From: Macrostomum lignano
Taxonomy: Eukaryota
Direction: 5' to 3'
Assembly: GCA_002269645.1 (NCBI GenBank)
Contig: NIVC01002660.1
Span: 1 to 64,000 of the forward strand
Length of the DNA stretch: 64,000 bases
Part shown: positions 1 to 24,162 of the stretch, one piece after another
How the letters are laid out: each line of letters begins with the position of its first letter
Numbering within the stretch: the stretch's first letter is position 1
Notes under the pieces: model-generated
Databases searched by the model: none
Told to the model about the DNA's origin: nothing
What the model saw: only the letters and a program-made list of their open reading frames with translations
Program-made: the position numbers and the translations under genes

Positions 1-832
1 TGTGTCTCTCAAGTAATTCAACTTTTGTAAGCTTTACGGAACCAGAAAAAATTAAGAGAATAATGGAAATAATATGAGGGATTGGGTATTTTTTCCTAAG
101 ATGTGCATTGCCCCTTCGTAGTTCAATGGTGCACTTTGTTCAACAGAACAGGTGTCCAGTTTGTTCCATTTAGGCTCACACAAACAGACCAACCAGGCCA
201 CACCTCTCCTTCCAACTTTATCTCTACAACTTTCCTAGCTCTTTTCAAAAATTGAAATCGTATCCACTTGTCTGAGTCATCTGCTGCACTGCTCCAATCT
301 GAAGCTGGGTTTGAATCTGCAACATGATATGCTGGCTGAAGAGTTATGAGAAGCGCGTCACTTTCATGTCAGAATGGGAAGCGTTTGAAGTCAGTAATGA
401 AAGAATATTGACTAATTTCGAACTCTCTGTACCTCCCGCAGTACCTTGCCATTCTGCTAACAAAGTGTCAATCTCAGTTTTAGAATACATCTTAGTGTCA
501 ATCTCAGTTTTAGAATACATCTTAGTGTCAATCTCAGTTTAGAATACATCTTAGTGTCAGTTTCGGTTTTTTGTGTAGACATTGTTTACGCGCGCCCATG
601 AGCATCGTCAATTAATTGTAGCATGGTGATATTCATTGGCGTCACTATCTTCCTTTGAATAAGAGTCTGAAACATTTCTCTTTGCTAACAATAAATTATC
701 TATTTCCTCTCTCTTATATCCTTCATTTTCATTGATGTAGCGATCATCAGCTAACGCTATTGTTATTCCAGGTGCTATATCATTTGAATTTGACGAGTAA
801 CCAAATTGATTGGCAGTATTCTTGTAACTCAT
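1..832 (-). pseudogene. Frameshifted fibre/receptor-binding-like gene (YxKxExD repeats plus discoidin-like C-terminal segment)
   Basis: ORF 608-832 has YKREEIDNLLLAKRNVSDSYSKEDSD. The next frame from 582 reads TETDTKMYSKTEIDTKMYSKTEIDTKMYSKTEIDTLL. Further frames give SDWSSAADDSDKWIRFQF, ARKVVEIKLEG...VSLNGTNWTPV and SVKLTKVELL. Several frameshifts are needed to join them. Confidence 0.55.
464..559. repeat. 30-bp tandem repeat, ~3 copies (encodes YSKTEIDTKM on the minus strand)
   Basis: Unit agtgtcaatctcagttttagaatacatctt is repeated directly. Confidence 0.9.
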
Positions 833-1260
833 TTTAATTGCTGCAAAATTTCGTTATAGCTATCTCCTTTATCGATTCGGTGTAAAAAGTACAGCGACAT
901 TTGACCACAATATTTCTTATCAAAAGTTTGAATTTGTTCTTCCATGTCTCCACATATTCTATTCTTTGTGTGATTAAACTTTTCCATAATTTCCAGTGTG
1001 GGCGGTAGTGCATAGGAATCAAAAAAATAAACCTTATCAGGAGCTGAAAATATAGCTGAATGATGTATACCCCGTTCTTTCGAAGTGTGAATATTTGTCA
1101 TAAAGTAACCATACTGTGGTAAATCAACAATTTCATCTCTCATGGCATAGCGAAATGGTTTTAACTTGAGATATTTTGCCCAATTCATCAGATCAATATT
1201 AGTCGTAGTGTCAGTCCCAAACTTTTGTTTAAATGCATTCCATGTCTCAGCTTCGCTCAT
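829..1260 (-). CDS. Adenain/Ulp1-like cysteine protease (Polinton maturation protease)
   Basis: RGIHHSAIF (His), YFFDSY (Asp) and QIQTFDKKYCG (Gln...Cys). The ATG at 1260 is preferred over the ORF-track start at 1269. Confidence 0.85.
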   Translation of the reverse strand: MSEAETWNAFKQKFGTDTTTNIDLMNWAKYLKLKPFRYAMRDEIVDLPQYGYFMTNIHTSKERGIHHSAIFSAPDKVYFFDSYALPPTLEIMEKFNHTKNRICGDMEEQIQTFDKKYCGQMSLYFLHRIDKGDSYNEILQQLK

Positions 1261-1269
1261 TTTTAACAC

Positions 1270-2061
1270 TCATATTTGTCGTATGTGAAGATTTATAAAT
1301 ATTTCCTCGCCATCAAAGTCGTATAGAACACCAGACTCATCTTCGATGACAAAGTCGAATGTGCTCAACATGTTTGTAGTTAGTGGTAGGTACACAGGAT
1401 TTGCGGGCTCTTGAATAATTTTACTTCCCATTGGGACAGAGAACGATGGAATTGAAAGAAGTATTTGCTTATCAATTAAATGATTTCCATTAGCTGGATC
1501 AGTGATAAACCCCCCTTTGGTATTTAGACAACGAACCATGATCGCACTTCTAGCTCCGTCTATCCGAGCTGGATTTGGAGCTCTCTCAAATGGTTTCAAA
1601 TACACTTCCGAATTGAATCCCAACAGTCTTCTAAAGTTATTGGAATGTGCATCCCTGAAATCAACTTGATAATCTGTGGCTAACCGTAACTCAACTCTAC
1701 GCGTGTCTAGGCTTGCACTGAAAACAATAGCCCCCTCTTTCCAATCATTTGCAGCTGTTAGCAATCTTTGAATCTCGCTTGACAGACTTTTAACTTCCCA
1801 AGATCCCGCTTGAATCTTTATTTTTTTCCATGTTCTACCACTATCCCTCGAGTATCGCAACTCATTATTGCCTCCTTCAATATTGTTAATAGCATCAAAG
1901 ACTGCAAACTTTTTTATACCAGCTTCGTATTCTCGATCTTCATACAAATTTATCGGAGTGCCTAGAGTTTGTCGAAATGGGTTTTTAATTGAAAAGAAGT
2001 CAAATGTGCGTTGAAACTTTTTACTCAAGAGGATGTTGACTTTTTCTATTTCTTTTTCCAT
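1270..2061 (-). CDS. Minor capsid protein (penton-like)
   Basis: 263 aa. PINLYEDREYEAG...INNIEGGNN...IKIQAGSWEV and C-terminal YLPL...IEDESG..YDFDGEEIFINLHIR match the pattern I recall for Polinton mCP. It lies next to the protease. Confidence 0.75.
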   Translation of the reverse strand: MEKEIEKVNILLSKKFQRTFDFFSIKNPFRQTLGTPINLYEDREYEAGIKKFAVFDAINNIEGGNNELRYSRDSGRTWKKIKIQAGSWEVKSLSSEIQRLLTAANDWKEGAIVFSASLDTRRVELRLATDYQVDFRDAHSNNFRRLLGFNSEVYLKPFERAPNPARIDGARSAIMVRCLNTKGGFITDPANGNHLIDKQILLSIPSFSVPMGSKIIQEPANPVYLPLTTNMLSTFDFVIEDESGVLYDFDGEEIFINLHIRQI

Positions 2062-2063
2062 TT

Positions 2064-2794
2064 TTAAGCAAGTAATTCTGCTAGCTCTTTATCAACATTA
2101 TTATGTCCTTCTGCTTGGCGGCTAATAAAGTTAACACTCTTTCACTGAGTCCAGATCCCGGTTTTACTCGATATCCTGGTGGATTATCTTTCAATATCCT
2201 TACTGCTTGCTTATAATTCCCACTTGATTTGGCCGCTGGATTTTTACAATGTTCAATGATGTTAACATAATCCTGCAATGTTTGCATCTTGAATTGCTTC
2301 AGCTCTTCACCATTTTCAGTTACTTTAGGCATTTTGAACAACTCTTCAAGATCTTCAGAAAATGGCATTCGAAATTCGTTGACAATGATGTCTCGACCTT
2401 GTTCATGGAATTCAACATCTATTACAGATGATCCAAATATATATCCAGCATCAGTTTTTTGAATCCGTATACTAGGCGCTGGTCTTTGAGTTATTTGAAT
2501 CTTTCCAATTTCTTCAATTATTTTGTCAAATACTTCTAGGGGTTCAAATCGGCCTTTTGGTGTACTTGATTGCGGAACTGGAACTTTTTGATTCTGAAGT
2601 TTATCAACAAGGTTGGCATTGACATCAATAAATTCATCGAGCTTTTCTGTGACAGGTTTTTGAGCTAATGGAGCCACTCTTGCATATAAACTCTCTTCTC
2701 CAATTTTCAAATAGCGTTGAGCATCATTTCTGGATTTGTACGTTTCTCGCTGCTTTGCTAAATTAATGAGTTCTCTTATATATTCATTAGTCAT
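2064..2794 (-). CDS. Conserved Polinton/adintovirus hypothetical protein; C-terminus probably frameshifted
   Basis: The ORF as given ends at 2081. Restoring one A near 2108 gives GSGLSERVLTLLAAKAEGHNNVDKELAELLA*, ending at the TAA 2 nt before the penton ATG. Confidence 0.6.
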
Positions 2795-2796
2795 TT

Positions 2797-3570
2797 TTAC
2801 AATGGGATTTTAGTTAGAACATCCTTATACAAATCTTGCTCATCCTCATCAGCTCTTGTATTTATATAGATATAGCCATACTTCTTTTTCCAAGCCTCTC
2901 TACATTTAGCCTTGAATATAGCGGGTTCATAATTCGTTTCTATATTTCTAGCAATGTGATTTAAGTTTGTATCTTTTTGTTTAAAGATTATGTAACATGT
3001 CGTATTCTCCCTGACAGTATTGCGATCTAGTTTGGTAAAATTTTGAGCTAGATAAAAACCACAACAGTTTCCATGCCTGCCTCTCTGAAACAGACTTTCC
3101 TGAAATGTTTGATTAGCCTCTCCCAAAACATCATCCAATATCACACATGTCTTTAGTCCATTATGAAAAATTTCTTCATTTGGAGTATGGGAAAGAGTGA
3201 CAGGAATTTTCTCTATTACTTCTGAATTTTCTGATGTGCTTTGCACTCGACCAGGGTTGGCTGCCTCTCGACAAATATGTCTAATATCTTCAGGAGATGC
3301 ATCCTCACTCACCTGGTAGACATGATAGAGTGAGTTGATAAGAGAAGGTGGGAGACCATTTTCAAAGCCATATTTTAGAAACTGATACTCTGGATCCATT
3401 TGAGATGCTCTGGGAACATATAAAACTAACTCATTAAAGTCAACTAGTTTTTCAGGACTTGTAAGAATATGGAATAGTAAATATGTTTTACCCGTATTTG
3501 TAGCGCCGATAATACAACATAAAAGAGGATTAGGGAAAATAGGATCATGCTGAAATTTTACTTTGGGCAT
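2797..3570 (-). CDS. A32/FtsK-like DNA packaging ATPase
   Basis: Walker A GATNTGKT, Walker B VILDD, RGRH motif, LAQN, RENTTCYIIFKQ. Confidence 0.92.
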   Translation of the reverse strand: MPKVKFQHDPIFPNPLLCCIIGATNTGKTYLLFHILTSPEKLVDFNELVLYVPRASQMDPEYQFLKYGFENGLPPSLINSLYHVYQVSEDASPEDIRHICREAANPGRVQSTSENSEVIEKIPVTLSHTPNEEIFHNGLKTCVILDDVLGEANQTFQESLFQRGRHGNCCGFYLAQNFTKLDRNTVRENTTCYIIFKQKDTNLNHIARNIETNYEPAIFKAKCREAWKKKYGYIYINTRADEDEQDLYKDVLTKIPL

Positions 3571-3591
3571 TTAAAAAAAGAAAAAATGACC

Positions 3592-4957
3592 TTATTCGAC
3601 GCGGGTCATTTGATATTCACTGGTAACTTTTATTACATTCTTTGTTTGTTCAAGAATTAGTGCAAAAGCAGTCAGCTCAACATTTGTTGACTTCTTGATA
3701 AATAATTGAATATTCACTCCACTCTTGACCAGAAACTCATCTTGAGCTGTTAGATCAAAGCAAAAGATTGGATAGATGGTTAGAAAGTCTTGTTTATTGA
3801 ATGGAGGAGTTACACCGAAACGGCTGCAGATGTCTTCGTACATTTCATACGCTCTGTGAATGTCTTGAGCTACTGGATCAATTTCAACATAATCATTCGG
3901 ATACATCACCTGATTTAATCTGACTTGAAGCTGGGTTATTTTCACTGCATTTGCTCCAGTTTTGTAAGACACATACTTGTGATCATTAACTATATATGAT
4001 GGGTTGTTTACGTCATATTTGAAAGCTACAAAGATTGCAAGTGGCATATTGGAGATGTTGGCTATGTTCCATGTATATGGACTTCCTTGAATGAGTTGTG
4101 GCGGAACCGTTACCCTCTCTGGAAATGATACTGTAATGTCCTTGTTGAGTGATTTTAGAAAAGCTGCTTCAGCACTGGGTGACAAAGTAATAGCAGGGAT
4201 CCAAATCTCAAAGCTATTAATAGTTAACTTAGCTTCCGTCCCGGCAGCTCCAAAGAAAATTTCAGCATCGTTAGTCTTTCTTGTCCATGTGAATTTATAT
4301 TTAATTCCTTTGCTAATCTTCTGCCAATCAAGGAACCCAATGAGGGGTGTTAATGATAGTTTGATTGTTCCACCTCTGTTTGGAGCATTAGTGACATTGT
4401 TATAATTTTCAAGCCTCCTAATGTATCCAGTATTCGAATCCTTCTTATTGAGTCTATTTTTCATAGCGATTGCTGCAGTTCTCACAGCTTCAGCATCTGC
4501 GTTGTTTGCTAGAGCTATATCAGAAACAGTCCCAGCATCTCCAGTGTCTGGAATCCATCCGTATGCTTCTCCAACTTCATTCATCAATTTTGAGTACATT
4601 ACGGACTTTAAGATTGTGTCATACTCTCCAGGATCATTATAGACTTTCTTTGTTCCTCCAATGTCAACTATGAGTTGAGAGAAAAGTCTCATAGGCCAAT
4701 TATGTTCTAGAGTAATGTTCGTATTCAAGTCGGTGTTTATCTCTTTGTGTTATTGAGTATTTTATACAACCGAATGCCTCTGACATGAGAATGTATGACT
4801 CTGTTGAATTGACTTCATGAACTATTTGACCTCCTGCAACATTGAGATTATTAGTGCTACCTGGTGTTGGAGAAATCTTAATATAGTCTTCTTTCTTTTT
4901 GAAAAAGCTAAAAGTTTTGTCCTCATATAGGTTCAGTATATCCTTTTTGTTCTCCAT
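3592..4957 (-). CDS. Major capsid protein (hexon-like), split by one frameshift around 4729-4765
   Basis: The 4700-4957 ORF (LNVAGGQIVHEVNSTESYILMSEAF) and the 3592-4728 ORF (ITLEHNWPMRLFSQLIVDIGG...NDPG; QVRLNQVMYP; YPIFCFDLT) overlap in different frames and join to about 455 aa. Confidence 0.85.
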
Positions 4958-4977
4958 TTTTATACGAGAAATTTCAA

Positions 4978-5430
4978 CTAAGCTTCGTGAGGTCTAAGAA
5001 TTATCCCATTACCCTGTTTCTCCTTTTCAACTTTAAAAGTCTTTAGCAGCCACTTGACTGCTTCGCTGGGTACTTGTTCGACTCTTTTAGCCGCATCAAC
5101 TAACACTCCACTCCCTTGAGCCTTTTTCAACTCTTCTAGTTTTTGTCGTTCAATGCTTTCTATTGTCTTATTATGCTTAGCATTGTTGGCTGTATTAACA
5201 CTTTTTGCAATCATTGTACCAACTCCGGAGGCTGCTCCGATACCACCCAATATTGCTGGTAGTAAGCCTAATAGAGGAATTATTCCACCTTCATGTTCTT
5301 TCTGTTTCTCTTGCAATTCTCGAATCTTCTCTTTAGAAAGATATTGCTTTTGCTTATTTACAGTAACATATCTTGGTTTTCCCTCTCGAACATATCGATT
5401 GAGTCTTGCTTCAGTGTTTTTCTCGCTCAT
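4978..5430 (-). CDS. Small virion-core protein with adenovirus pX-like hydrophobic segment
   Basis: Basic N-terminus, then EGGIIPLLGLLPAILGGIGAASGVG, resembling the adenoviral pX C-terminal GGILPLLIPLIAAAIGA pattern (from memory). Confidence 0.6.
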   Translation of the reverse strand: MSEKNTEARLNRYVREGKPRYVTVNKQKQYLSKEKIRELQEKQKEHEGGIIPLLGLLPAILGGIGAASGVGTMIAKSVNTANNAKHNKTIESIERQKLEELKKAQGSGVLVDAAKRVEQVPSEAVKWLLKTFKVEKEKQGNGIILRPHEA

Positions 5431-5438
5431 TTTTAAGG

Positions 5439-5861
5439 TCAGAATTTCTTCAAACCATTGCCTTGTCTCAAAGACACTTGAGACTGTTCTGCTGTTCCTA
5501 GAGCCTTTTTAACAATATCTTGAATAGCCTTATTTGATTGAGAAGCTATCTGTTGCTCTTCTTCCATTCTTTTCTTTGCTTCTTTATCTCTACGTTTCTT
5601 TTTAATATATTCCAGTTCCTCACCTGCTTTAGACATGTCACTGTATGATTTCTTCGCATCGAATATGTTCTTCGCTGTGGTAGCTGTTTTACCTATTGCA
5701 TCAGCTCCACTCACAATTTTACTTCCATGATTTGATAAAAAGTTTGTGACACCACTGATCATATCACCAATTCCTTCACCCTCTTTATCAGCTAGTAGTT
5801 GTGAATCAGACGTTTCAATCTGACCTTTCGCCCGTTTGCAGTTTGTTCGATAGGCGCTCAT
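5439..5861 (-). CDS. Small protein with amphipathic-helix segment (cupiennin-like class of adintovirus genes)
   Basis: Likely start MSAYRTN at 5861 (CTAAAAATG). Contains GEGIGDMISGVTNFLSNHGSKIVSGADAIGKTATTAKNIF, then a charged coiled coil. Confidence 0.55.
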   Translation of the reverse strand: MSAYRTNCKRAKGQIETSDSQLLADKEGEGIGDMISGVTNFLSNHGSKIVSGADAIGKTATTAKNIFDAKKSYSDMSKAGEELEYIKKKRRDKEAKKRMEEEQQIASQSNKAIQDIVKKALGTAEQSQVSLRQGNGLKKF

Positions 5862-7173
5862 TTTTAGTTGAAAAATTTGCTGGTAGAAGCTGGGATTTGT
5901 AAAATGATCCAATGATTTCTTCTCCATTCTCATCCTCAATAATGTAGGTTATGGGATTGGAGTAAACTATTTTCTTTATCCTAAACACTTCTGAAATTTT
6001 CCAATATCCTCTTCGACCCTTTTCAAAGTGCTCCTTATATCTATAGATATGAACTTTGTCACCTACTTTGAAGTTTGGTTTCTCATTTGAATACTCGAAA
6101 GTTGGCTTTGGTACTCGCTCAGGATGTTTAGATGCTTCTGAAGGAGTTATCAGAATCTCAGAATGGATTGTGTTGTTGTATTTTTCAACAATAGCTGGCA
6201 ATGTGTGGAGCCACTTCTGATTACCCTGTAGATCAAATTCAAACCAGAGTTTATTTGTGAGAGTACGATTGAACCTCTCAATCATTGCATTCTTGGACTC
6301 GCCATAAATTGAAAACATCTTGTTAATATATTCACCCCTTTCATCCTTCTTTCTAATGTTGTCTTTTGAAAACGAGTATAGCTTGTACATATGCTGATTA
6401 TAAAACTCCTTGCCTTCATCTACACAAAGTCTCTCTGATCGTCTTCCTGATTCCTTAAATACTTTTTGGAAAGCTTCTGCAACTTCCGCTCCCGTCTTTG
6501 TTTTCAAAGGAACTGCCCAGGCGTAACGTGTAAAACCATCTATGATAGTGAGAGCATATTTGTAACCTCTTTCGGGCGGTAGGATAATGATATCTGCATG
6601 CCAAATTGTGTCTTTTGCATAGTGAATCATTTTTCTAAATACTCTTGGCTTTCTGTATTCCCTATGCAATTTTACTGCATCTTCATAGCTAAGACCCTTA
6701 CCATAAATTGTTAGACAGTCTATACAATTGTTGGGGTTGTGAGTATGAATTCCTAATCCAAACCGAACTTTAGCATTGATAATACGCTTTATTAGATTTC
6801 TAATGAGTCTCTCCTTTACCGACAAGTCGCTGGTTGGAATAGCATCTAAATCAGCTATCATTTTTTCATCAGCAATATGCTTCTTTGCTAGGGCTTCCTC
6901 TGGAGTTGAAGACGTCTTTACAGCATCTCTATAGCTTTTGTCATGATAGTAAGCAGTCCAATCAATTGGATTAATTGGTAGACTATCATACCGAGGCCAG
7001 TCTGTAGTTGGATTGAGTCTCTTGTCTAAATTTGTACCTGGGCCAGTGAAAGAATACCCTGGAATATGAAATTCGCCAGGATATTTTCCAGTGGCGAAGA
7101 TGGGTGGTAGTTTTGTTATAGCTGACTGAATATCCAATGCAGAACCTAGAAATAATGGTTTACTGAAGGCCAT
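5815..7173 (-). CDS. Parvovirus-VP1u-type phospholipase A2 domain fused to retroviral-type DDE integrase
   Basis: N-terminal HIPGYSFTGPGTNLDKRL...PIDWTAYYHDKSY. Integrase core WHAD, LCVDEGKEF and IERFNRTL, then FKVGDKV. Confidence 0.9.
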   Translation of the reverse strand: MAFSKPLFLGSALDIQSAITKLPPIFATGKYPGEFHIPGYSFTGPGTNLDKRLNPTTDWPRYDSLPINPIDWTAYYHDKSYRDAVKTSSTPEEALAKKHIADEKMIADLDAIPTSDLSVKERLIRNLIKRIINAKVRFGLGIHTHNPNNCIDCLTIYGKGLSYEDAVKLHREYRKPRVFRKMIHYAKDTIWHADIIILPPERGYKYALTIIDGFTRYAWAVPLKTKTGAEVAEAFQKVFKESGRRSERLCVDEGKEFYNQHMYKLYSFSKDNIRKKDERGEYINKMFSIYGESKNAMIERFNRTLTNKLWFEFDLQGNQKWLHTLPAIVEKYNNTIHSEILITPSEASKHPERVPKPTFEYSNEKPNFKVGDKVHIYRYKEHFEKGRRGYWKISEVFRIKKIVYSNPITYIIEDENGEEIIGSFYKSQLLPANFSTKNERLSNKLQTGERSD

Positions 7174-7206
7174 TTTTATAAAAATAAATTTAAGTAATCT
7201 ACAGAC

Positions 7207-7405
7207 TTAGGCTGCGTTAACTGCTGTAGCAATAGAGCCTGCTGCTGCACCTGCCTGTTCTATGAAAGGTAGATTTGTCTTTTACTAAGTTGGATATGGT
7301 GCTTATAGTATCAAAAAAGACCTTCTCCATTATACTCTAGTGGTTCGCCTATTGTATAGTCTCTTATCTTGCATGATTCTGTAACGTGGTGCGCTTCGTG
7401 TCTTT
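7207..7405 (-). pseudogene. Cryptic indel-disrupted small ORF, apparent paralogue of the 5439-5861 amphipathic protein
   Basis: Four single-base corrections give MTRSAPRYRIMQDKRLYNRRTTRVYGEGLFDTISTISNLVKDNLPFIEQAGAAAGSIATAVNAA*. Confidence 0.5.
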
Positions 7406-7945
7406 TTAGAAAGGGGGGTGAACACAATAGACTAGCATGAGACGCTCCTATTGGTTGCCAAAACCAAAACTTTTTTGGCAGAAATTTTGGTCGCAAGATT
7501 TGGCAGAAATTTTGGCAGCCAATAGCAATGTTCAGTGCTGCGGTTATGTATAGTTAGTTTGGTGAGTTCCTGCGAGAGCCTATTTGACCATACGCTTCAC
7601 TCAGTGTGGGTTTCGCACGACGTTAAAGCTGAGTCACAATATAAAAATTGCTTTGAGGAGAATTTCTCCTGCTATTTGTTCCATTTTTAAGATACATAAT
7701 TTAGAAAAGGGTTAGTGAAATCGTCCGTAGGTAGGGTCGCGAGAGCATTGTTCGTTTGTAACTTGCGTGGCCCACTTCATGTCTTTTTTTACAGCTAGAT
7801 AGAGGGTGAACACAAAAGATTTGCACGAGCCACTCCTATTGGCTGCCAAAACCAAACACTTTTTGGCAGAAATTTTGGCAAAAATTTTGGTTTTGGCAGA
7901 AATTTTGGCAGCCAATAGAAATGTTGAGTGCTGCGGTTAGTGCTC
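7404..7945. repeat. Two diverged ~140-bp direct repeats, each containing a 16-bp inverted-repeat pair
   Basis: Copies at ~7410-7556 and ~7803-7940. Arms are ctattgg(t/c)tgccaaaa (7448-7463, 7836-7851) and ttttggcagccaatag (7510-7525, 7903-7918). Confidence 0.85.
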
Positions 7946-8486
7946 TAGTAGTCGAGTATGCATGCCACGAAAAATTTAAATTAGCGCTCCATGTTCTTGA
8001 ATGTCTTCTATTATCTTTAAGTACAAATCTAGAACAGCATTAAAGCCATTTCAAAGCCTCGGGACAAAGCGAATGTGCAGGAGCAAATTATTGACTTTTG
8101 TAAAAGCATTGAATGCCTCGAGTGGACAATTTTTATGCATAGATGGTAGCTGACTGATCGTTAAAAGCAAAGCTAGTAAGATTGGCTTATTGAAGGGCGT
8201 TATGCAATGGGAGAAAAGACTATTATTAAATTTGATGCTAGTTTTGAAATGATGAAACCTGAAAATAGGTTATTTTAACCCACGAATCAAAAATTTCTTG
8301 TGGTTTTACTCACGAAATCGCGCAAAAAGCAATTTTTCGAAACTTTTGAAAAATCACTAAAATCACTGTTTTCAGACAATTTTCACCTGTTTTTAGTCGA
8401 TTTTTATCTGTTTTTTGTGATTTTTCAAAATGGGTTGCGCTCAAACCTACTTTTCCTATACTACTAATCTTTCTGCCCGTTTCCAG

Positions 8487-11400
8487 CCGCAAGTCATTTG
8501 AAGCACCGTTTCTAGCGGCAAACTTGCGGGGCGACTTGCTTCAGTTCAGCCAACAAGCGGGGATCTTGAGTGAAATTTCACAAATAGTGGTTGTGTTTAT
8601 CGATGCGCAGAGCTTTGTTAATCCTGAGTGCTTTACGCTGCTACAAAAACTCGAAACAAGACTTACGCTTCTCCTTGTCTTGTACAAGACAGAAGCAACC
8701 ACAATTTCGAAGACTGAGTTTCGCACCGAGCATGAAGCTTTTCTGCAGCGCAACGGTAGTGTTTTTGCGTTCAGAAAAAAGGGCAGGAAGAGTGAAAGAG
8801 AGGTGTGCTCAGAAATAGAACTCATTCTGAACGCACAAATTTGCAAATGCGAGGGTTTTCAGATGGAAAAACTCGAAATTCGGCGCGCAAACTTGGATGA
8901 GAGCGAAAAAGTATCGCAAACAAAGCTTTTGTCTCGGAAAATAATGAAATATTTTGTCTCTGAGAAATCAGCTCAATTTAAACAGAAGCATCTGCCATTG
9001 CAAACCTTATGGCTGGAGGTCAGCAAGCTCTACAAGGTGGAGAACGCTGCAAAAACAGCTCAAACAGATCAACTCATTAGCCAAAAAATGAGAATGGAAA
9101 AGAGAAGTGCACAGCTTAAGTTTTGTGAAAGACTGAGCGAGTTCATCATCGTTTTTGTGAGATCCTTGTTAGATTTAATAAACAGCGAAGATGGTGAACT
9201 CGCAGTAAAACTTCTGCTGCAATGGATGAAACTAACGTTCGACAATAAGTCAAGGAAACTATTGCCTCAGCTGCAGAAGAAATGCAACGAGCTTCGGGAT
9301 CAAACGCAAAATAGACGAAAGCTGGATTCTGATCCTATAGTCACATTAGCCTCTGTGCAGAAAACTACTCTAGATGCTTCAGTCGGACTCGAAAATGTGT
9401 TTCGAGAAGTTGGCCAAATTTTTGAAGCCTGTAGTGGAAATCCAAACCGTGTTCCTCGAAGTCTTCTAAATTTTGTACAGCCGCTACCGAAATTGTTTGC
9501 TCAGTTGCTTCTTTGGGGAGTACCCTTGGAGATTTTGGATGGCGACGCTGGAAACATCCCGTCTGCCTGGATCTCTGCTATCCTCAAGAGCTGCCATGAG
9601 CTGGTCGGTGACAAGAAGATCTACGTGATCTCCGTGCTCGGTCTTCAGAGCTCAGGCAAGTCCACTCTGCTCAACACCATGTTCGGGCTGAAGTTCGCAG
9701 TGAGCGCAGGTCGCTGCACTCGAGGCGCATTTCTGCAGCTGGTTCCGGTGGAGTCGGGAATGCCGTTCGACTATGTCGCTGTGCTCGACACCGAGGGCCT
9801 GAGAGCTCCCGAGCTGGGTCTGGACAAGCATCACCATGACAACGAGCTGGCTACACTGGTCATCGGACTGGGCGACGTAACAATAATTAACATCAAGGGC
9901 GAAAACTCAGCCGAGATGAAGGATATCCTACAGATCGCGATTCATGCCTTTATCAGAATGAAGATGGCTAACAGGATGAGGGATTTACACAGACACTGCA
10001 TCTTCATCCACCAAAATGTTCCTGCAGTTGGAGCTAAAGAGCTGATGCAGGAGGCAGCATTCAAAATGCAGCAGACACTGGACACTATCACGAAAGAGGC
10101 AGCTGAGGGAGAAGGTTTGCGTGGTGTCTGCGGCTTCACTGACATTATTTCATTTGAAAAAGAGTCCGACATTTTTTACATGTCAGACCTTTGGCAGGGC
10201 GACCCTCCGATGGCTCCAGTGAACCCTGGATACGCACAGAAGGTGTCGGCTATCAAAGACTATTTGCTACATCTTCTTGAAGGGGAAAGAAAGCACTTTC
10301 TCAGCTTTCCCGAATTCTCCTGCCGTCTCGCCGATCTTTGGAAAGCAATCCTATCTGAGGATTTCGTCTTCAGTTTCAAGAACACCATACAGCTTAAAGC
10401 CTACAGCCAAATGGAGACAGAATTTTCCGAAGCAAAAAATCTCATGGAACAAGCTGCAGAAGAATGGCTTAACAGGGAGGCGTCAATTCAAATCAAAAAG
10501 TGCCGTGATGTTACCGAGCTTTGCAAAGTTAGGGAGCAAAATTTGAGTGAACTTCAAGGCCTCGTCAGTAAACACCTGGAAAGTAGCCGAAGCCGACTTG
10601 AGAAGTTTTTCGAGGAGGGCCAATACAGCGAGTATGCAATTGAGTGGAAGGAGCGAAAAATTATTGCTTTGCAAAACTTCTCCAAGGATCTGCAACAAGA
10701 AATGAAGAAAAAGCTTTTCATCATGACGGAGCGCCACAAAGCTGACACCGAGAGGGAGCCGAAAAAGGCAGAATTGGAGCGTCGAATACTCGCGAAAGCG
10801 AAGAATCTAGCAAAGCAGTTTCGAGATCAAAACTTAGATGTGCAGTTTTTGAAACGAGAGTTTGAAAATGAATGGAAAATCTTCATGGATGACCTGCCTG
10901 TTGAGTCAACCGACGAGACACAGAGCATCGAAACGCAAATCATTTCATTTTTGGAGGAAAGCTATGAAAAAGACATTAAGGTTTTGCGCTATTTTCTTGA
11001 AAAAAAACCAATAGGTGCTGCTGAAGCTAGAATTAATGTTTTGACGGAGTTTTTAAATGAAGAAGAGAATTCTTTTCAGTTGATTCAGGTCCAACCTTCA
11101 AGTGTTCAACGTTTCACTCAAGGAGTTAAAAATTTGTTATCTGGAGCTGAAAATCGTTTGGATGAAGCAGATGAAGCTACAAAACAGGAAGTTCAAAAGT
11201 CCTGCAACAATATTTTGACATCCATCGCTCCAATTATAGATGATATGAAGAAACAGACCACAGGGTTTCAGAGACAGTTCGTTGTAGCGATTCAGAAAGC
11301 CATTCGGCTAGGAGTCGAGGAGCAAGTAAATGGAAAACTAGACAAGCGCGGCATCAGCTCAACACCAGCCCTTGAAATCAAACTTGTGACTCACGCACTG

Positions 11401-12663
11401 AGATTCACTTATCCAATTTTCATCAAAATGGATGAAAAATTTCACGAGGGGCAAAGTCTCAAAGCCAAATTGGCGCTGTCAAAAGATCAGATGTGGAACT
11501 TGTTTCAAAACATTGTTCAGCAGCACAACCATTCTAAAATTGCAGCAGACTTTTGCCGAGATCATCTGGCCGTCGTTATCAAAGATGCTGTCAAAGCGCG
11601 AATGGAGAGAATCCTAAAAAGGCAAATAATTACCAATATCGGCACAACAAAATACCAATTAATCGTCACGGTGCTCACTGACAAGGCTCGGAATGATGAT
11701 TTCGATTCTATTATTCAGTACAGTCAGAATCCACACTCGTCAGCTCTTAAATGGGTAACGGATTTCGCAGAAAAGAGGCTATTTCACAAGAAGCGAACAG
11801 ACAAAGATTCATTATTCTGTCATCTTATTCTATCCGAACTGGTGGATCCAATCTTAGAATCAATTAAAACTGCCGCAGAACTTTCAGCCAGCAGTTCAAA
11901 GAATCTTTCATCGTGGATCGATGGATTTTGCAAGGCCGCAGGAAATGAGCTTGCAGTTCTGCCTCGAAACCTGCAAAACATGTTGCAGTTCAAATCGGCC
12001 ACCACTGGCGATATGAAAAGTTATTTGCTTGACGGTTTATTTAAGCTGAGATCGGATCTGCATTTGCACTACAATGCTGTCACTGAGAATTCTGTAGAGT
12101 GGCATGGAGAGAAAACTCTCTATGCAGACGTGATTCAGACTCTGTGGGGCTGCAAAGAGCAGTGCCCCTTCTGTAGAGAGCCGTGTCAGAAAGCTGACCC
12201 GAATCACTGCGAAACCGATGGAAGCCCTCATTGCTGCATTCAGCATCGACCTAAGGCTGTTTGTGGGACGTATAAAATCAGTAACGATGAATTAAGCTTT
12301 AAAATATGTGAAAATTCTGTTAAAGGTGGATCTAAATTCACTTGTAATGTGTGCAAACGAGAAGGGAAGACATCTGAATCATGTTCTTCCGACACAAGTC
12401 GCGCCGCACGTCGAGAAGTTCGGCATCCGTACAAGGAATACAAGAAGCAATTTCCAGATTGGGAGATCGTACCGGACGCAGCCAATGACTCGGCAAAATT
12501 CTGGATGTGGTTCTGCTGGACATATCAGCGGCAGCTACAGGAGAAGTGGCAGAAAGGACTCGGCCAGATCCCGCCCGCTTGGCAGGACGTCTCAAAGGAA
12601 GACGCCATCAACAGTCTTCGAAAGTCTTCTGTAAGGTTATCGCAGTTTTTAAAACTACTGTAA
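8487..12663 (+). CDS. GVIN1: Very large inducible GTPase (VLIG/GVIN1/URGCP-like); one long exon, 5' part missing
   Basis: G1 GLQSSGKS, G2 RCTRG, G3 DTEG, AANLRGD motif and Cys/His-rich C-terminus (GCKEQCPFCREPC...HRP...HPYKEYK...PDWEI). There is no upstream in-frame ATG. A branch-like ctactaat (8461) and acceptor ttccag (8481-8486) precede it. Confidence 0.9.
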
Positions 12664-15917: not shown

Positions 15918-16463
15918 TCACTTCTTGCCACCGCGCCACCGCCTGCCAGTTCCCGGCGGCCAGTTCATGGTCTGCCCGGCAAACACGTGCATGTGCAAAT
16001 GTGGCACAGCCTGGAGTGCATCATCTCCATTATTCAGCACCATCCGGTATCCGTGCTCAACACCTCTCTGCTTAGCAACTCGCCTAGCAACCATGAACAG
16101 GTGGCCCAACAATTGTTCGTCGCAATCCTGAGCCTCTTCAAGCGTGGCGAGCTGCTTCTTCGGCACCACCAGAAACTGGATCGGCACCACCTGGTTGAGT
16201 CCCAGGAAAGCGATGGCCTGCTCGTCCTCGTACAGGATGGTGGCCGGCGCCTTGCGCTGGATGATTCGCGTAAAAATCGACGGTCGCCTGCTCGCCAGCT
16301 CGTTTGATAAGGCGCAACGATCGCCGCGTCGGTCGGTGTAGCGAGATGACGAGGCGCTGATGAAGGAGGCTGCAAGGCCGAGTAGAAGCAGCAGGCAGAG
16401 TCCCGCAGACAAACAGACGCTGTGCCGGTGTAGCACTCGGTAGTATATGTACGAGAACTGCAT
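15918..16463 (-). CDS. HINT: Histidine triad nucleotide-binding (HINT1/2-like) protein with hydrophobic N-terminal leader
   Basis: SIFTRII...ILYED...FLVVPKK...LLGHL...GYRMVLN...HLHMHV...WPPG. Intronless. Confidence 0.9.
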   Translation of the reverse strand: MQFSYIYYRVLHRHSVCLSAGLCLLLLLGLAASFISASSSRYTDRRGDRCALSNELASRRPSIFTRIIQRKAPATILYEDEQAIAFLGLNQVVPIQFLVVPKKQLATLEEAQDCDEQLLGHLFMVARRVAKQRGVEHGYRMVLNNGDDALQAVPHLHMHVFAGQTMNWPPGTGRRWRGGKK

Positions 16464-19735: not shown

Positions 19736-21231
19736 ATGCGCGAAATTGTTCACATCCAAGCTGGGCAGTGCGGCAATCAAATCGGTGCCAAGGTAAGCCT
19801 TTTGTTGTGTATAAATATTCTATTTTTAGTGAATGTAGCCAATACAGCCAGATTTTCATCTGTTCCGACAGTTCTGGGAGGTGATCTCAGACGAGCACGG
19901 TATTGACCCAACCGGCACCTACCACGGAGACTCGGACCTGCAGCTGGAGCGAATCTCGGTCTACTACACCGAGGCAACGGGCGGCAAGTACGTGCCTCGG
20001 GCGGTTCTAGTCGACTTGGAGCCCGGCACCATGGAGAGCGTTCGTTCCAGCGCCTTTGGCATGCTGTTCCAGCCCGACAACTTCGTGTTTGGCAAGAGCG
20101 GCGCCGGCAACAACTGGGCCAAGGGTTACTACACCGAGGGCGCCGAGATCATCGAGAAGGTGATGGACGCGGTCAGGAAGGAATGCGAAGGCTGCGACTG
20201 TCTGCAGGGATTTCAGCTCGCCCACTCGCTAGGCGGCGGCACCGGCTCCGGGCTCGGGTCCCTGCTGCTGAGCAAGATCCGGGAGGAGTACCCCGACCGA
20301 ATCATGGCCTCGTTTTCTGTGGTTCCGTCGCCAAAGGTTCGTTGAGCTTTGCGTCTCATTCTTTTTAACTTTATTGCTCAGTCGATTGATAAGTTATTCG
20401 ACAATGCCTAAATTTCAGGTGTCAGACACCGTGGTGGAGCCCTACAACTGCATGCTGGCAATGCACCAGCTGGTTGAAAACACTGACGAGACCTTTTGTA
20501 TTGACAATGAGGCTTTGTACTACATCAGCTTTCACACGTTAAAACTGGCCACGCCAAGCTACAGCGACCTAAACCATCTAGTTAGCGCTGCAATGTCCGG
20601 CGTGACCACCTGTCTGCGATTCCCCGGCCAGTTGAACGCTGACCTCAGAAAGCTGGCCGTCAACATGGTGCCGTTCCCCCGCCTGCACTTCTTTATGCCC
20701 GGCTTCGCCCCGCTGACCGCTCGCGGCAGCAGCTCCTACCGACAGGTGAACGTCTCCGAGCTCACCTTGCAAATGTTCGACGCCAAGAACATGATGGCCG
20801 CCTGCGACCCCAAGCACGGACGCTACCTCACAGTGGCAGCCATCTTCCGCGGCCGAATGTCCACCAAAGAGGTGGAGGAACAGATGCTCAACCTGCAGAA
20901 CAAGAACAGCTCGTATTTTGTAGAGTGGATTCCCAATAACATCAAGACTGCCGTTTGCGACATCCCACCGCGTGGTTTGAAAATGTCGGTGACATTCATC
21001 GGCAACTCGACCTCGATCCAGGAGCTGTTCAAGAGAGTCTCTGAGCAGTTCAGCTCAATGTTCAAACGAAAGGCCTTCTTGCACTGGTACACTAACGAAG
21101 GCATGGACGATCACGAGTTCATGGAGGCCGAGTCCAACGTTAACGACCTGGTCTCCGAGCTGCAGCAGTACCAGGACGCCACGGCTGACGACGAGGGCGA
21201 ATACGAAGAGGAGGAGGAAGAGCTGGAGTAG
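19736..21231 (+). CDS. TUBB: Beta-tubulin, 3 exons (19736-19792, 19872-20336, 20419-21231), 444 aa
   Basis: [17 protein letters not shown] start, GGGTGSG motif and acidic tail. GT-AG introns of 79 and 82 nt. Exon sum is 1335 nt, in frame. Confidence 0.97.
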
Positions 21232-22046: not shown

Positions 22047-23549
22047 TCACTTGGTCACCAGCTGGAAGTAGCCTCTCCCGAGACTGCCTCGGCTATTGTT
22101 AACAGGCTGCAGAGCGTAGTACTGATGGCGGTGATGCTGCGGCTGCTGCAGATATACGTGATGATGCTGTGGCATCCGGGAACGAACAGGTACCAGCTTC
22201 ACCAGCTGGCCTGACGGCTGCTGCGGCGGGCTATACTGCGGCTGCAGCACCTGGAAGTTGGAGTTGGACCTCTGCGAGTTTGTCACGTAGGTTACCTGAG
22301 GTCGCCTGCCATCAACACGGTCCACATCGTCGTAGCTGTTCGACGTCTGAACCCGAAGCGTACCTGGCCGGGCCGCGAATCCTCCGCTGCTGCGTCCGTT
22401 GATGACGCTGCGCTCGTTTAGCAGCGTCGGCGGCCCATTCTGCGACTCGAACACCGCGTAGGTGGCTCCGGCAGGCACGTCGTCGTAGTTGATGACGACC
22501 GAGTCGATGGTTCGTTCGGTTCTGCTGCCGCGCTCGTGAGCGGCGGCTTGGCGCTGATCGAAGAACCCATCGTCGGGCATCGATGTGGACACTGACGAGG
22601 CCCTGACGGTGACGCGGGCCTCCGGGGAGGCGGCTGATCGTCGAGGCTGAACCTGCGACGCCAGGGCCCGCTGGGAGTAGCCCCGTTCGAGCGGTCCGAA
22701 TCCCGGGAAACCGCTGTCCGCTGAGAATGACGACATTCGCGGCTCTGTCTGAGATTTCTGCTGTTGCTGTTGCTGCTGCTGAGTGGCCGCTGCCTGCATG
22801 GCCCAGTTGCTGGTGGCCGTCTGTCGCACAGGCGTGTCAGGCAGGTAGTTGGCCTCCTCAGCTGCCAGCCGGCGCTGCTTGTCGATGAGCCGGGTGGCCT
22901 CGGTCAGCGCAGCCGGATCCTTGAATTGCAGCACGGTGATGCATTTCTGATCGAAATCCCGGGTACAGAGCGTCAGCAGGCGCTGCGGTGTCGGCTGCCT
23001 GGGCGAGATGCAGGCCACAATGCGCTGGTACTTGATGTGCTCGAGAGGCATGGAAGCGAACAGGCCGTTCTCGCCCAGCCGCAGGCCAGTGTTGAACACC
23101 CTCAGGCAGGTCCGAACTCGAGCGTTGCTCTTGGCGACTCGCCGGACAAGCTCCTCGGCCTTCTCTGGCCCGAAGTCGTCCTCAGGCCCGAGCAGAAAGC
23201 GGCCGCAGACTTGAATTTTTACTTTGAGCAGCTTCTGCGCCTCAGTTGAAGCGAAGAGCTGCTTCTGACGAGGCTCCATTTGCAATCTTGCTTTCTCTCC
23301 TGCTTTCGGACTCGCTTTTGGTTTCTTATTTAATGTGTCCAGACTTAAGGCTTGAATGAGCAGAGGAGAAGCACCCCCGCTGCGAGGGGCCCGATGCCAT
23401 GCAGTCTCAGAATTGCAGACGGCCTCTGTATTAATGGTTTGGGTTTGGTCCACAATTCGAATAGCATGAGAATAAGAATGAACCAGGGAGAGAGCTGTCC
23501 TGACAGCGTTCTTCTCCACCACAAATTGAATAGCCTTGCCAGGAGGCAA
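22047..23549 (-). CDS. Orphan protein; possible PH/PTB-like domain followed by a low-complexity Q/S/P tail
   Basis: 500-codon ORF with GC3-rich codons from ~23279 (MEPRQK), where the real start or exon may lie. Alternating beta/alpha pattern over roughly residues 105-225. Confidence 0.6.
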   Translation of the reverse strand: MPPGKAIQFVVEKNAVRTALSLVHSYSHAIRIVDQTQTINTEAVCNSETAWHRAPRSGGASPLLIQALSLDTLNKKPKASPKAGEKARLQMEPRQKQLFASTEAQKLLKVKIQVCGRFLLGPEDDFGPEKAEELVRRVAKSNARVRTCLRVFNTGLRLGENGLFASMPLEHIKYQRIVACISPRQPTPQRLLTLCTRDFDQKCITVLQFKDPAALTEATRLIDKQRRLAAEEANYLPDTPVRQTATSNWAMQAAATQQQQQQQQKSQTEPRMSSFSADSGFPGFGPLERGYSQRALASQVQPRRSAASPEARVTVRASSVSTSMPDDGFFDQRQAAAHERGSRTERTIDSVVINYDDVPAGATYAVFESQNGPPTLLNERSVINGRSSGGFAARPGTLRVQTSNSYDDVDRVDGRRPQVTYVTNSQRSNSNFQVLQPQYSPPQQPSGQLVKLVPVRSRMPQHHHVYLQQPQHHRHQYYALQPVNNSRGSLGRGYFQLVTK

Positions 23550-24162
23550 AAAGAAACTATTTAATTACCTTTCTACTGCAACGCCCACCATTCTTGTCAT
23601 TTTGAGCACAATTGAAGATCTCTGCTCACACTCGCATTATGACTTGCATCTGTTTAGCATTTACACAACTAGCAACTATGAAGTGGCGTGTTTAGCAAGA
23701 TATTAAAAGTTTGTCGAGTCTCTAATATTCATTCAATTGGAGGAAATGTTTAGGTGGGGCAGAAATATGTTTGACATTAATTTCTTTCCTCTTCTTACAA
23801 ATATCTTGTCAATCAATGCTACTATAGGGAGATGCGGACTCCTTAACCCTTACTTTTCTGATTTAAATATGGTAAAGAATGCAGTTGAATCGCAACGAGG
23901 CACTGTGCAAGATGAATACAGATACGTATAGTACTTCCGGTTAACTGAAAGAACGCTTTCATTCTCCGTTTCTATCCCTGGAAGGACAACACTGCAAGGA
24001 CATCTGCTGTCTGGGTGCACCTCTAATCTGTTTTCAAATTTGCAGCGGAGAGAACTAAGGCTCTCAACTTCCTGTTCCCAGTGAAAGCAATTAGCAAGCA
24101 ATAAGTTGCTGTTGTATTTATTCGTATTTGTATTTTGGTGGTTTCTATGGCTTTTCTGTCTA

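Follow-up and report, generated by a model that had tools for sequence, protein, structure and literature searches.

The provirus and its insertion site

The window analysed here is a stretch of 64,000 nucleotides from Macrostomum lignano (contig NIVC01002660.1, positions 1 to 64,000 of the forward strand). Its left end is very probably a defective, minus-strand copy of an endogenous Maverick/Polinton (adintovirus-type) provirus. The initial annotation had named integrase, the major (MCP) and minor (mCP) capsid proteins, A32 ATPase and adenain-type protease as the genes of a Polinton or adintovirus, and this assignment was borne out by profile, Atlas and structure matches. The chief item of interest is a conserved in-frame fusion of phospholipase A2 (PLA2) to the integrase, which constitutes a variant of a known element type. 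Taken as a whole, we consider it likely that a defective Polinton (Polintoviricetes) lies in a host VLIG GTPase gene and that, in the working virus, its PLA2-integrase may be a packaged and processed precursor.

The right end of the element is sharp. The hexamer AGTAGT, a typical Polinton end for which a literature search gave no usable source, lies on the minus strand at 8460..8465 and marks the junction with host DNA. Read on the plus strand as ACTACT, it has its sole occurrence within 7001-9200 at this position. Since the match of the host URGCP domain (PF25496) begins immediately to the right, at 8473, and does so mid-profile, at position 137 of 299, the element ends at 8465, within the host gene. 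The terminus had previously been placed at 7410; this position is ruled out, as the element reaches about 1 kb further. The host sequence is the 3′ part of a VLIG/URGCP-type GTPase gene split by the insertion (8467..12663, plus strand; PF25496, and PF25683 with E 3.3e-112). It is intronless and open for 1398 codons despite the insertion. An ATG at 8863 in this frame would give a protein of 1266 aa retaining the GTPase domain. The partner end of the element lies beyond the window. No open reading frame (ORF) of the size of pPolB is found in 1-8465, and the element continues past the left window edge. Polintons are described as bearing terminal inverted repeats and a 5-8 bp target-site duplication (10.1101/2023.08.22.554363).

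Between the genes and the junction lies a non-coding terminal region (7411..8459) that probably holds the terminal inverted repeat and contains no minus-strand ATG ORF of at least 50 aa. A repeat finder located tandem units of 21 nt together with an inverted pair of 22 nt at 8344-8430, and Rfam gave 0 matches over 1-9000. Two direct repeats of about 160 bp (7385-7546 and 7766-7939), 79% identical by blastn self-comparison, are each an imperfect internal palindrome made of 12-nt units. They may serve as an origin or for packaging, or represent a small insertion. A window-wide repeat search, swamped by host microsatellites, revealed no second copy of the element; blastn of 1-8500 against the window returned internal repeats only, and plasmid and phage collections gave no match.

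The genes themselves form a compact array. Minus-strand reading frames are densely arrayed over 1-7173, with gaps of -47 to +21 nt between units, and the GC content of 1-8465 (37.1%) is lower than that of the adjoining host gene (44.6%) and of the remaining window (47.9%). Introns were not needed to align MCP, mCP, ORF150 and integrase with their relatives. The starts of all nine readable genes conform to T-A(3-4)-ATG (832, 1260, 2061, 2794, 3570, 4957, 5430, 5861 and 7173, minus strand). Exact TAAAAATG occurs eight times on the minus strand of 1-8465, seven of them at gene starts, and never on the plus strand; the shuffle expectation has a mean of 0.68 and a maximum of 3 (300 shuffles). Because the starts are uniform and TAAAAATG shows this minus-strand bias, the gene cluster is real and co-directional. 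The earlier description of ten abutting, intronless, AT-rich minus-strand genes thus stands for packing, strand, GC content and the lack of introns. It does not stand for completeness: ten units are reached only if a decayed unit at about 7174-7400 is counted, and whole ORFs make up six of them (PLA2-integrase, ORF140, ORF150, ATPase, mCP and protease).

The shared start motif is possibly an element-specific promoter or initiator. An AAATT-like motif lies about 15-20 nt upstream of most of the nine starts. Among related loci described below, AAAATG stands at 7/8 gene starts in L002, 2/2 in L001 and 1/7 in L024. The eighth copy of TAAAAATG, at 7684 (minus strand) between the direct repeats, opens a frame of 16 codons only and is possibly the start of another decayed small gene.

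The PLA2-integrase fusion and its relatives

PLA2 had been listed as a gene of its own. It is instead joined in frame to the integrase in a single, whole ORF of 452 aa (5815..7173, minus strand), with matches to PF08398 (E 8.9e-9) and PF00665 (E 7.1e-10) that are both above cut-off. A parvovirus-type PLA2 (about aa 30-141) is followed by a linker that starts from R-F-G-L-G (137-141), an RVE core and a C-terminal domain; the core is an RVE/DDE integrase of the Maverick/Polinton kind. The structural model of the fusion (pLDDT 82.9) consists of two folded modules, with the linker (141-158, starting at R-F-G-L-G) below 50. Residues 30-146 of the model match rice PLA2 (Z 8.0, root-mean-square deviation (rmsd) 4.0, 97 aligned), and a match to PFV integrase starts at residue 164 (Z 19.9, rmsd 3.6, 247 aligned). 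The integrase lacks the C-terminal chromodomain by which adintoviruses are recognised (Buck 2024) and which PMC11071296 calls distinctive for them: there is no Chromo match at E<=0.1. Some fused homologues do bear PF00385. The same definition also includes a hexon that BLASTp recognises in both directions against reference adintoviruses.

With the 452-aa protein as query, 408 homologues were retrieved, 120 of which were listed. Some PLA2 together with integrase is present in 95 of these 120 and a near-complete PLA2 in 85; HDxxY is found in 85, and a K/R-hydrophobic-G-x-G/A motif ahead of the integrase in 84. The window protein was aligned with 51 of the 120, picked as fused forms. Across these 52 sequences H77, D78, Y81, D102, K135, G139, D194, D252 and E299 are invariant, and G141 is nearly so. 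The fused architecture across the listed homologues rules out an accident of a single copy. It is also visible in automatic annotation, as one JGI protein name among the matches lists both domains.

Two further observations concern these homologues. P0001, a close homologue of the fusion, and P0280, a close homologue of the pX-like ORF150 discussed below, both list a 4853-nt ENA contig, which suggests that the linkage of the two genes is kept in a near relative. In P0105 and P0117, the integrase appears by eye to carry a protease-like N-terminus instead of PLA2, a possible protease-integrase fusion.

A set of 55 related loci, many of them on short contigs, was drawn from 157 pattern matches in GTDB contigs. 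These contigs, from bacterial and archaeal metagenome-assembled genomes (MAGs), carry a Polinton integrase and, where longer, also MCP, ATPase and pPolB-like genes. The longer loci are probably Polinton-type contigs binned with bacterial MAGs, that is, eukaryotic-virus contamination of the bins. PLA2 was found in nine of the 55 loci, directly upstream of the integrase in five and elsewhere in four. The five, which share this arrangement with the window, are L002 (CBDDTI010000304.1), L024 and L044 (CBDDCI010000002.1), L001 (DAIRDV010000149.1) and L004 (JAKSCW010000126.1); they differ from it in gene order and orientation and reach only 22-38% identity. L002 shares the ATPase, mCP, a GG-hydrophobic pX-like ORF, a PZ-type ORF and MCP with the window element, and has a pPolB-like gene. 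In L024, as in the window, a repeat-bearing fibre-like gene follows the protease.

The junction between PLA2 and integrase is in frame in L024 and L044, in the -1 frame in L001 and L004, and in the +1 frame in L002. In the three out-of-frame loci the integrase frame has no Met before the first catalytic Asp. A slippery heptamer, a short spacer and a hairpin form the textbook layout of a -1 frameshift. At L001:2085-2145 the PLA2 ORF ends and the integrase resumes in the -1 frame; an A-AAA-AAC heptamer at 2091 is followed about 5 nt later by a 12-bp hairpin (-21.7 kcal/mol, z -4.29, equalled in 0/200 shuffles). This junction is a lead, a candidate programmed -1 frameshift and the lone strong case. 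Stable downstream structure is absent at L004:1372-1440 (z -0.31) and L002:10310-10380 (z +0.73), both with A-runs, and these junctions may reflect decay or assembly error. At the in-frame junction of the window itself a frameshift signal is not required, and none is evident (z -1.49, 16/200 shuffles). For penton and hexon-adenain, -1 frameshifts have been predicted (PMC11071296).

In an integrase tree (FastTree, 146 domains covering >=215 profile positions, with shorter rows and the fragmented L044 excluded), the loci with out-of-frame junctions, three in number, occupy three separate positions among the in-frame fusions; of the 31 loci without adjacent PLA2, 28 make up one group (94%). An ATPase tree of 14 rows groups the window with L002, L004, L005, L024 and L044 (100/99). 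Here the window has a long branch (1.22), and its ATPase is at most 32% identical to those of the compared loci.

A search that covered literature outside subscription journals, Repbase and bioRxiv supplements turned up neither a described PLA2-integrase fusion nor a frameshift reported at its junction. The available parts of PMC3671162, PMC5803895, PMC7805220, PMC11131425, PMC12567637 and 10.64898/2026.10.13.758929 describe none either, nor do those of the other sources cited here. The same holds for the available text of PMC8502044, in whose maps a fused gene, if drawn, could be missed.

Virion genes and damage to the copy

The MCP gene (3592..4957, minus strand) encodes a double jelly roll recognised by PF21738 (E 1.5e-13, 51.1 bits against a cut-off of 27) and is broken once. 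It has 273 relatives at E<=0.001, the best at 66%. When nine full-length relatives from the top 20 of 150 listed were used as tblastn queries, eight aligned in two frames, the N-terminal part in one and the remainder in the other, with a switch between 4727 and 4745; the ninth aligned to the larger piece only. The adjoining packaging ATPase of the A32/FtsK-HerA type is whole (2797..3570, minus strand, 257 aa; PF04665, E 6.9e-6, 26.1 bits against a cut-off of 22.8) and contains Walker A, Walker B and RGRH motifs. Whole as well is an adenain-type (C5) cysteine protease of 143 aa (829..1260, minus strand), which matches Atlas clusters that carry Peptidase_C5, scored 0.97 (in 13% of members) and 0.95 (in 62%). 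Its His, Asp, Gln and Cys motifs are present, and it matched proteases of eight related loci at E<=0.015; it escaped direct sequence searches of Pfam and PDB. More broadly, neither Pfam nor PHROGs yielded a usable match for mCP, protease, ORF140, ORF150 or ORF237.

The penton-like mCP gene (1270..2061, minus strand, 263 aa) is whole and has five homologues at 52-78%; it also matches the equivalent gene of L002 (E 4.4e-26). A PDB sequence search with its profile yielded no real match. The model built from six sequences has a pLDDT of 53.1, with values below 50 at 1-51 and most of 156-263. Its confident part is an insertion domain that matches the EhV-201 capsid model (Z 8.3, rmsd 3.0, 97 aligned), PBCV-1 (Z 7.5, rmsd 2.5, 92 aligned), the mavirus penton (Z 5.9, rmsd 3.2, 90 aligned) and an adenovirus-derived chain (Z 5.4), with flagellar FliD (5.5) as background. 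Capsid or penton chains thus make up four of the top five structural rows (Z 8.3-5.4), and the modelled domain would fit the penton insertion domain described in PMC11071296.

Two small whole ORFs precede the MCP gene. ORF150 (4978..5430, minus strand) encodes a putative pX-like core protein with a GG motif followed by a hydrophobic, Gly/Ala-rich segment. It has 11 homologues at 40-70% identity, in which G48, G49, P52, L53 and L54 are invariant. The proposal of a pX-like protein agrees with a weak Pfam Adeno_PX match in three of 12 family members (best E 6.8e-5); the window protein itself is not among them. The top PDB match is pX (E 0.41), and a profile-profile comparison of the ORF150 family with the GG-type ORFs of seven loci gave a probability of 7.8%. 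ORF140 (5439..5861, minus strand, start motif at 5861), a candidate membrane-active core protein with two G-x-G motifs, had no Pfam or PHROG match below E 0.01 and no match to a profile of the ORFs preceding MCP in five related loci. The element had been presented as carrying two amphipathic proteins. This description is not upheld by the two small ORFs: the best hydrophobic moment of ORF140 (0.48) was equalled in 13/200 shuffles and that of ORF150 in 33/200, neither of them significant. No ORF of the element has a Pfam match to gasdermin (ORF140 is unassigned); the Beta adintovirus virion module is marked by GasderminX and cupiennin genes.

ORF237 (2081..2794, minus strand) is uncharacterised and has no Pfam, PHROG or Atlas match; it is probably the conserved gene of the PZ type. 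Its tail possibly lies in another frame (2067-2141), which ranks best of 419 frames at a non-significant E of 2.5. At the left end, a gene in at least four pieces by frame reading (1..832, minus strand) runs towards the window edge. It encodes YxKxEID-type repeats followed by an F5/8 (discoidin) domain (PF00754 at 126-368), and a 30-nt tandem repeat lies at 464-570. In L024, the gene of 367 aa that lies downstream of the protease has similar repeats (phmmer E 0.076). The initial view of the left-end gene as fibre-like is plausible from its repeats and its F5/8 match (E 5.6e-6, below the Pfam cut-off). The opposite end of the cluster holds a decayed small gene (7174..7400, minus strand, limits approximate) with stops and frame switches in a three-frame reading. 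Two pieces of it, collinear in different frames, rank second and fourth of 419 frames against the ORF150 profile (E 0.69 and 1.5); this is no more than suggestive, and the gene was probably one for a second pX-like or core protein.

With the MCP switching frame, the fibre-like gene in pieces and the terminal small gene decayed, the virion module cannot be called near-complete, as had been proposed. Because the MCP and fibre-like genes are broken, the copy as assembled also lacks the virion competence once suggested for it. It would be unable to build a capsid, and mobilisation in trans or the supply of single proteins is the most that it could achieve.

The breaks might instead be long-read assembly errors in a multi-copy element, so that the provirus would be whole and recent. 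Six genes are whole and retain their catalytic residues; the MCP pieces are free of stops where aligned and 61-63% identical to a 477-aa relative; the split host gene is still open, and one 30-nt tandem unit differs in a homopolymer run. We nevertheless regard this explanation as unlikely. The host frame beside the element is unbroken over 4.2 kb, with the breaks concentrated in three or four viral genes, and real damage is favoured over assembly error for this reason. Moreover, base runs in the break regions are mostly short, at 3-4 bases; about 200 nt of the terminal small gene contain several stops and frame switches; and genomic Polintons commonly have a split MCP (13 of 72 elements; PMC4028283).

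Damage of this kind is also what an old dead relic or a host-domesticated fragment would show, with no tie to an active lineage. At least three of the ten genes are broken, and the ATPase branch is the long one noted above. This reading is nonetheless highly improbable, because integrase, mCP, MCP and ORF150 all have whole relatives at 64-79% identity; start motifs and gene order are uniform, and the terminus is sharp. The copy stems from a lineage with whole relatives. Because these relatives lie in public assemblies at such identities, recent activity of the lineage, as initially suggested, is plausible on sequence grounds. The provirus itself is ordinary and damaged; what it adds is a divergent branch and a case of clean insertion in a GTPase gene of the immunity type.

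A putative packaged precursor and its parallels

The PLA2-integrase may be a protease-processed, virion-packaged precursor, a proposal we hold tentatively and at slightly less than an even chance. In a working virus, the precursor would be packaged via its PLA2 part, alongside the small core proteins ORF150 and ORF140. During maturation, the viral adenain-type protease would cleave at the recurring basic-x-G-x-G and GG motifs. The released PLA2 and hydrophobic pX-like peptides would then breach the endosome, and the released integrase would enter with the genome and integrate it with no need for fresh gene expression, in the manner of a retrovirus that brings its own integrase. In favour of this scheme, the candidate cleavage motif opens the low-confidence linker, and K135 and G139 are invariant. 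G-x-G or GG motifs number three in ORF150, two in ORF140 and one each in ORF237 and mCP, with none in ATPase and protease. A conserved fusion of an entry enzyme to integrase, coupled to a candidate protease site, predicts that integrase is virion cargo.

A different origin of the fusion, which is possible but doubtful, would be compaction or translational coupling. PLA2 would then replace the N-terminal domain of the integrase in an uncleaved protein, or the two activities would differ in time and involve no co-packaging. As the match to PFV integrase starts only at residue 164, PLA2 does occupy the place of the N-terminal domain; many relatives have only a short linker (median 12.5 aa, range 3-129, n=76), and genes are tightly packed throughout the element. 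However, 84 of the 95 fused proteins retain the G-x-G motif at the domain border, this motif recurs in small core-type proteins, and the PLA2 active-site residues are invariant, which a purely structural role would not need.

Several observations weigh against the explanation as a whole, a defective Polinton with a packaged precursor. The adenain consensus has a hydrophobic P4, and that of the candidate cleavage motif is basic. PLA2 is apart from the integrase in four of the nine PLA2-bearing loci and was not seen in 46 of the 55, so that integrases work without it. The homologue set is enriched for fusions, because the fusion served as query and lengths were limited to 248-791 aa. On the side of the virion, the jelly roll of the mCP itself failed to model, with low confidence, and a Foldseek search of this weak model against viral structures gave 0 matches at E<=0.001; its top rows, above that value, include putative minor capsid proteins. 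Furthermore, pPolB, the second terminus and the target-site duplication would all lie left of the window. Cleavage, packaging and particle formation are predicted only, and no virion has been observed so far for Maverick-Polintons, according to the available text of 10.64898/2026.06.19.733378.

Extending the packaged precursor to a broad animal Polinton lineage is somewhat unlikely. Such a lineage would make a packaged, adenain-cut PLA2-integrase polyprotein, and some members, such as L001, would produce integrase only via a programmed -1 frameshift.

Two known systems offer parallels. In retroviral Gag-Pol, the integrase is made in a precursor with virion protein and freed by the viral protease, and the PLA2 of parvovirus VP1u serves endosomal escape. 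The window element has neither reverse transcriptase nor Gag and has a double-jelly-roll capsid, so that any likeness to Gag-Pol would be functional only. If the reading of a broad lineage is true, a DNA virus with a double-jelly-roll capsid would be using a strategy akin to that of Gag-Pol, and it would become directly testable whether Polintons produce infectious particles with integrase inside. That Polinton PLA2s are packaged entry enzymes has been proposed earlier (PMC4642659; PMC8502044).

The virion module is PLA2-bearing and appears group 2/Alpha-like, a placement based on PLA2 and on likeness to unlabelled loci. Starrett et al. (2021; PMC8502044) describe PLA2X, gasderminX and cupiennin-like genes in adintoviruses. 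With their Alpha (Mayetiola-class) adintovirus, the window element shares hexon, a probable penton, FtsK, adenain, an rve integrase, a PLA2 of parvovirus type and a hydrophobic pX-like segment, and the text of their reference map includes a fibre gene, as in the window. Adintoviruses have already been described as carrying PLA2, pX-like and fibre genes (PMC8502044; 10.64898/2026.07.28.741253), and the large entry toolkit initially singled out is therefore not unusual. The arrangement differs: the Alpha PLA2 bears a C-terminal pX-like domain (PLA2X) and is separate from the integrase, whereas in the window PLA2 is fused to the integrase, lacks that domain, and the pX-like protein is separate. 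Alpha adintoviruses are also characterised by a PolB of the OTU-pfam03175 type, a gene that falls outside the window here. With group 2 Maverick-Polintons, in which phospholipase is common, the element has in common an animal host, MCP, mCP, A32 ATPase, protease and RVE integrase; unlike the window element, they have no integrase fusion in the available description (10.64898/2026.06.19.733378).

The remaining host DNA in the window is animal-type: it has introns and many minisatellites, and its genes include those for beta-tubulin, HIT and PLC. A HIT-domain gene is contained in a single exon at 15918-16463, and the beta-tubulin gene, which is divergent and interrupted by one short intron, spans 19839-21228. 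A further host ORF at 22050-23564 (minus strand) matches a trematode PH-like domain at E 3.9e-4, below cut-off, which hints at a flatworm host.

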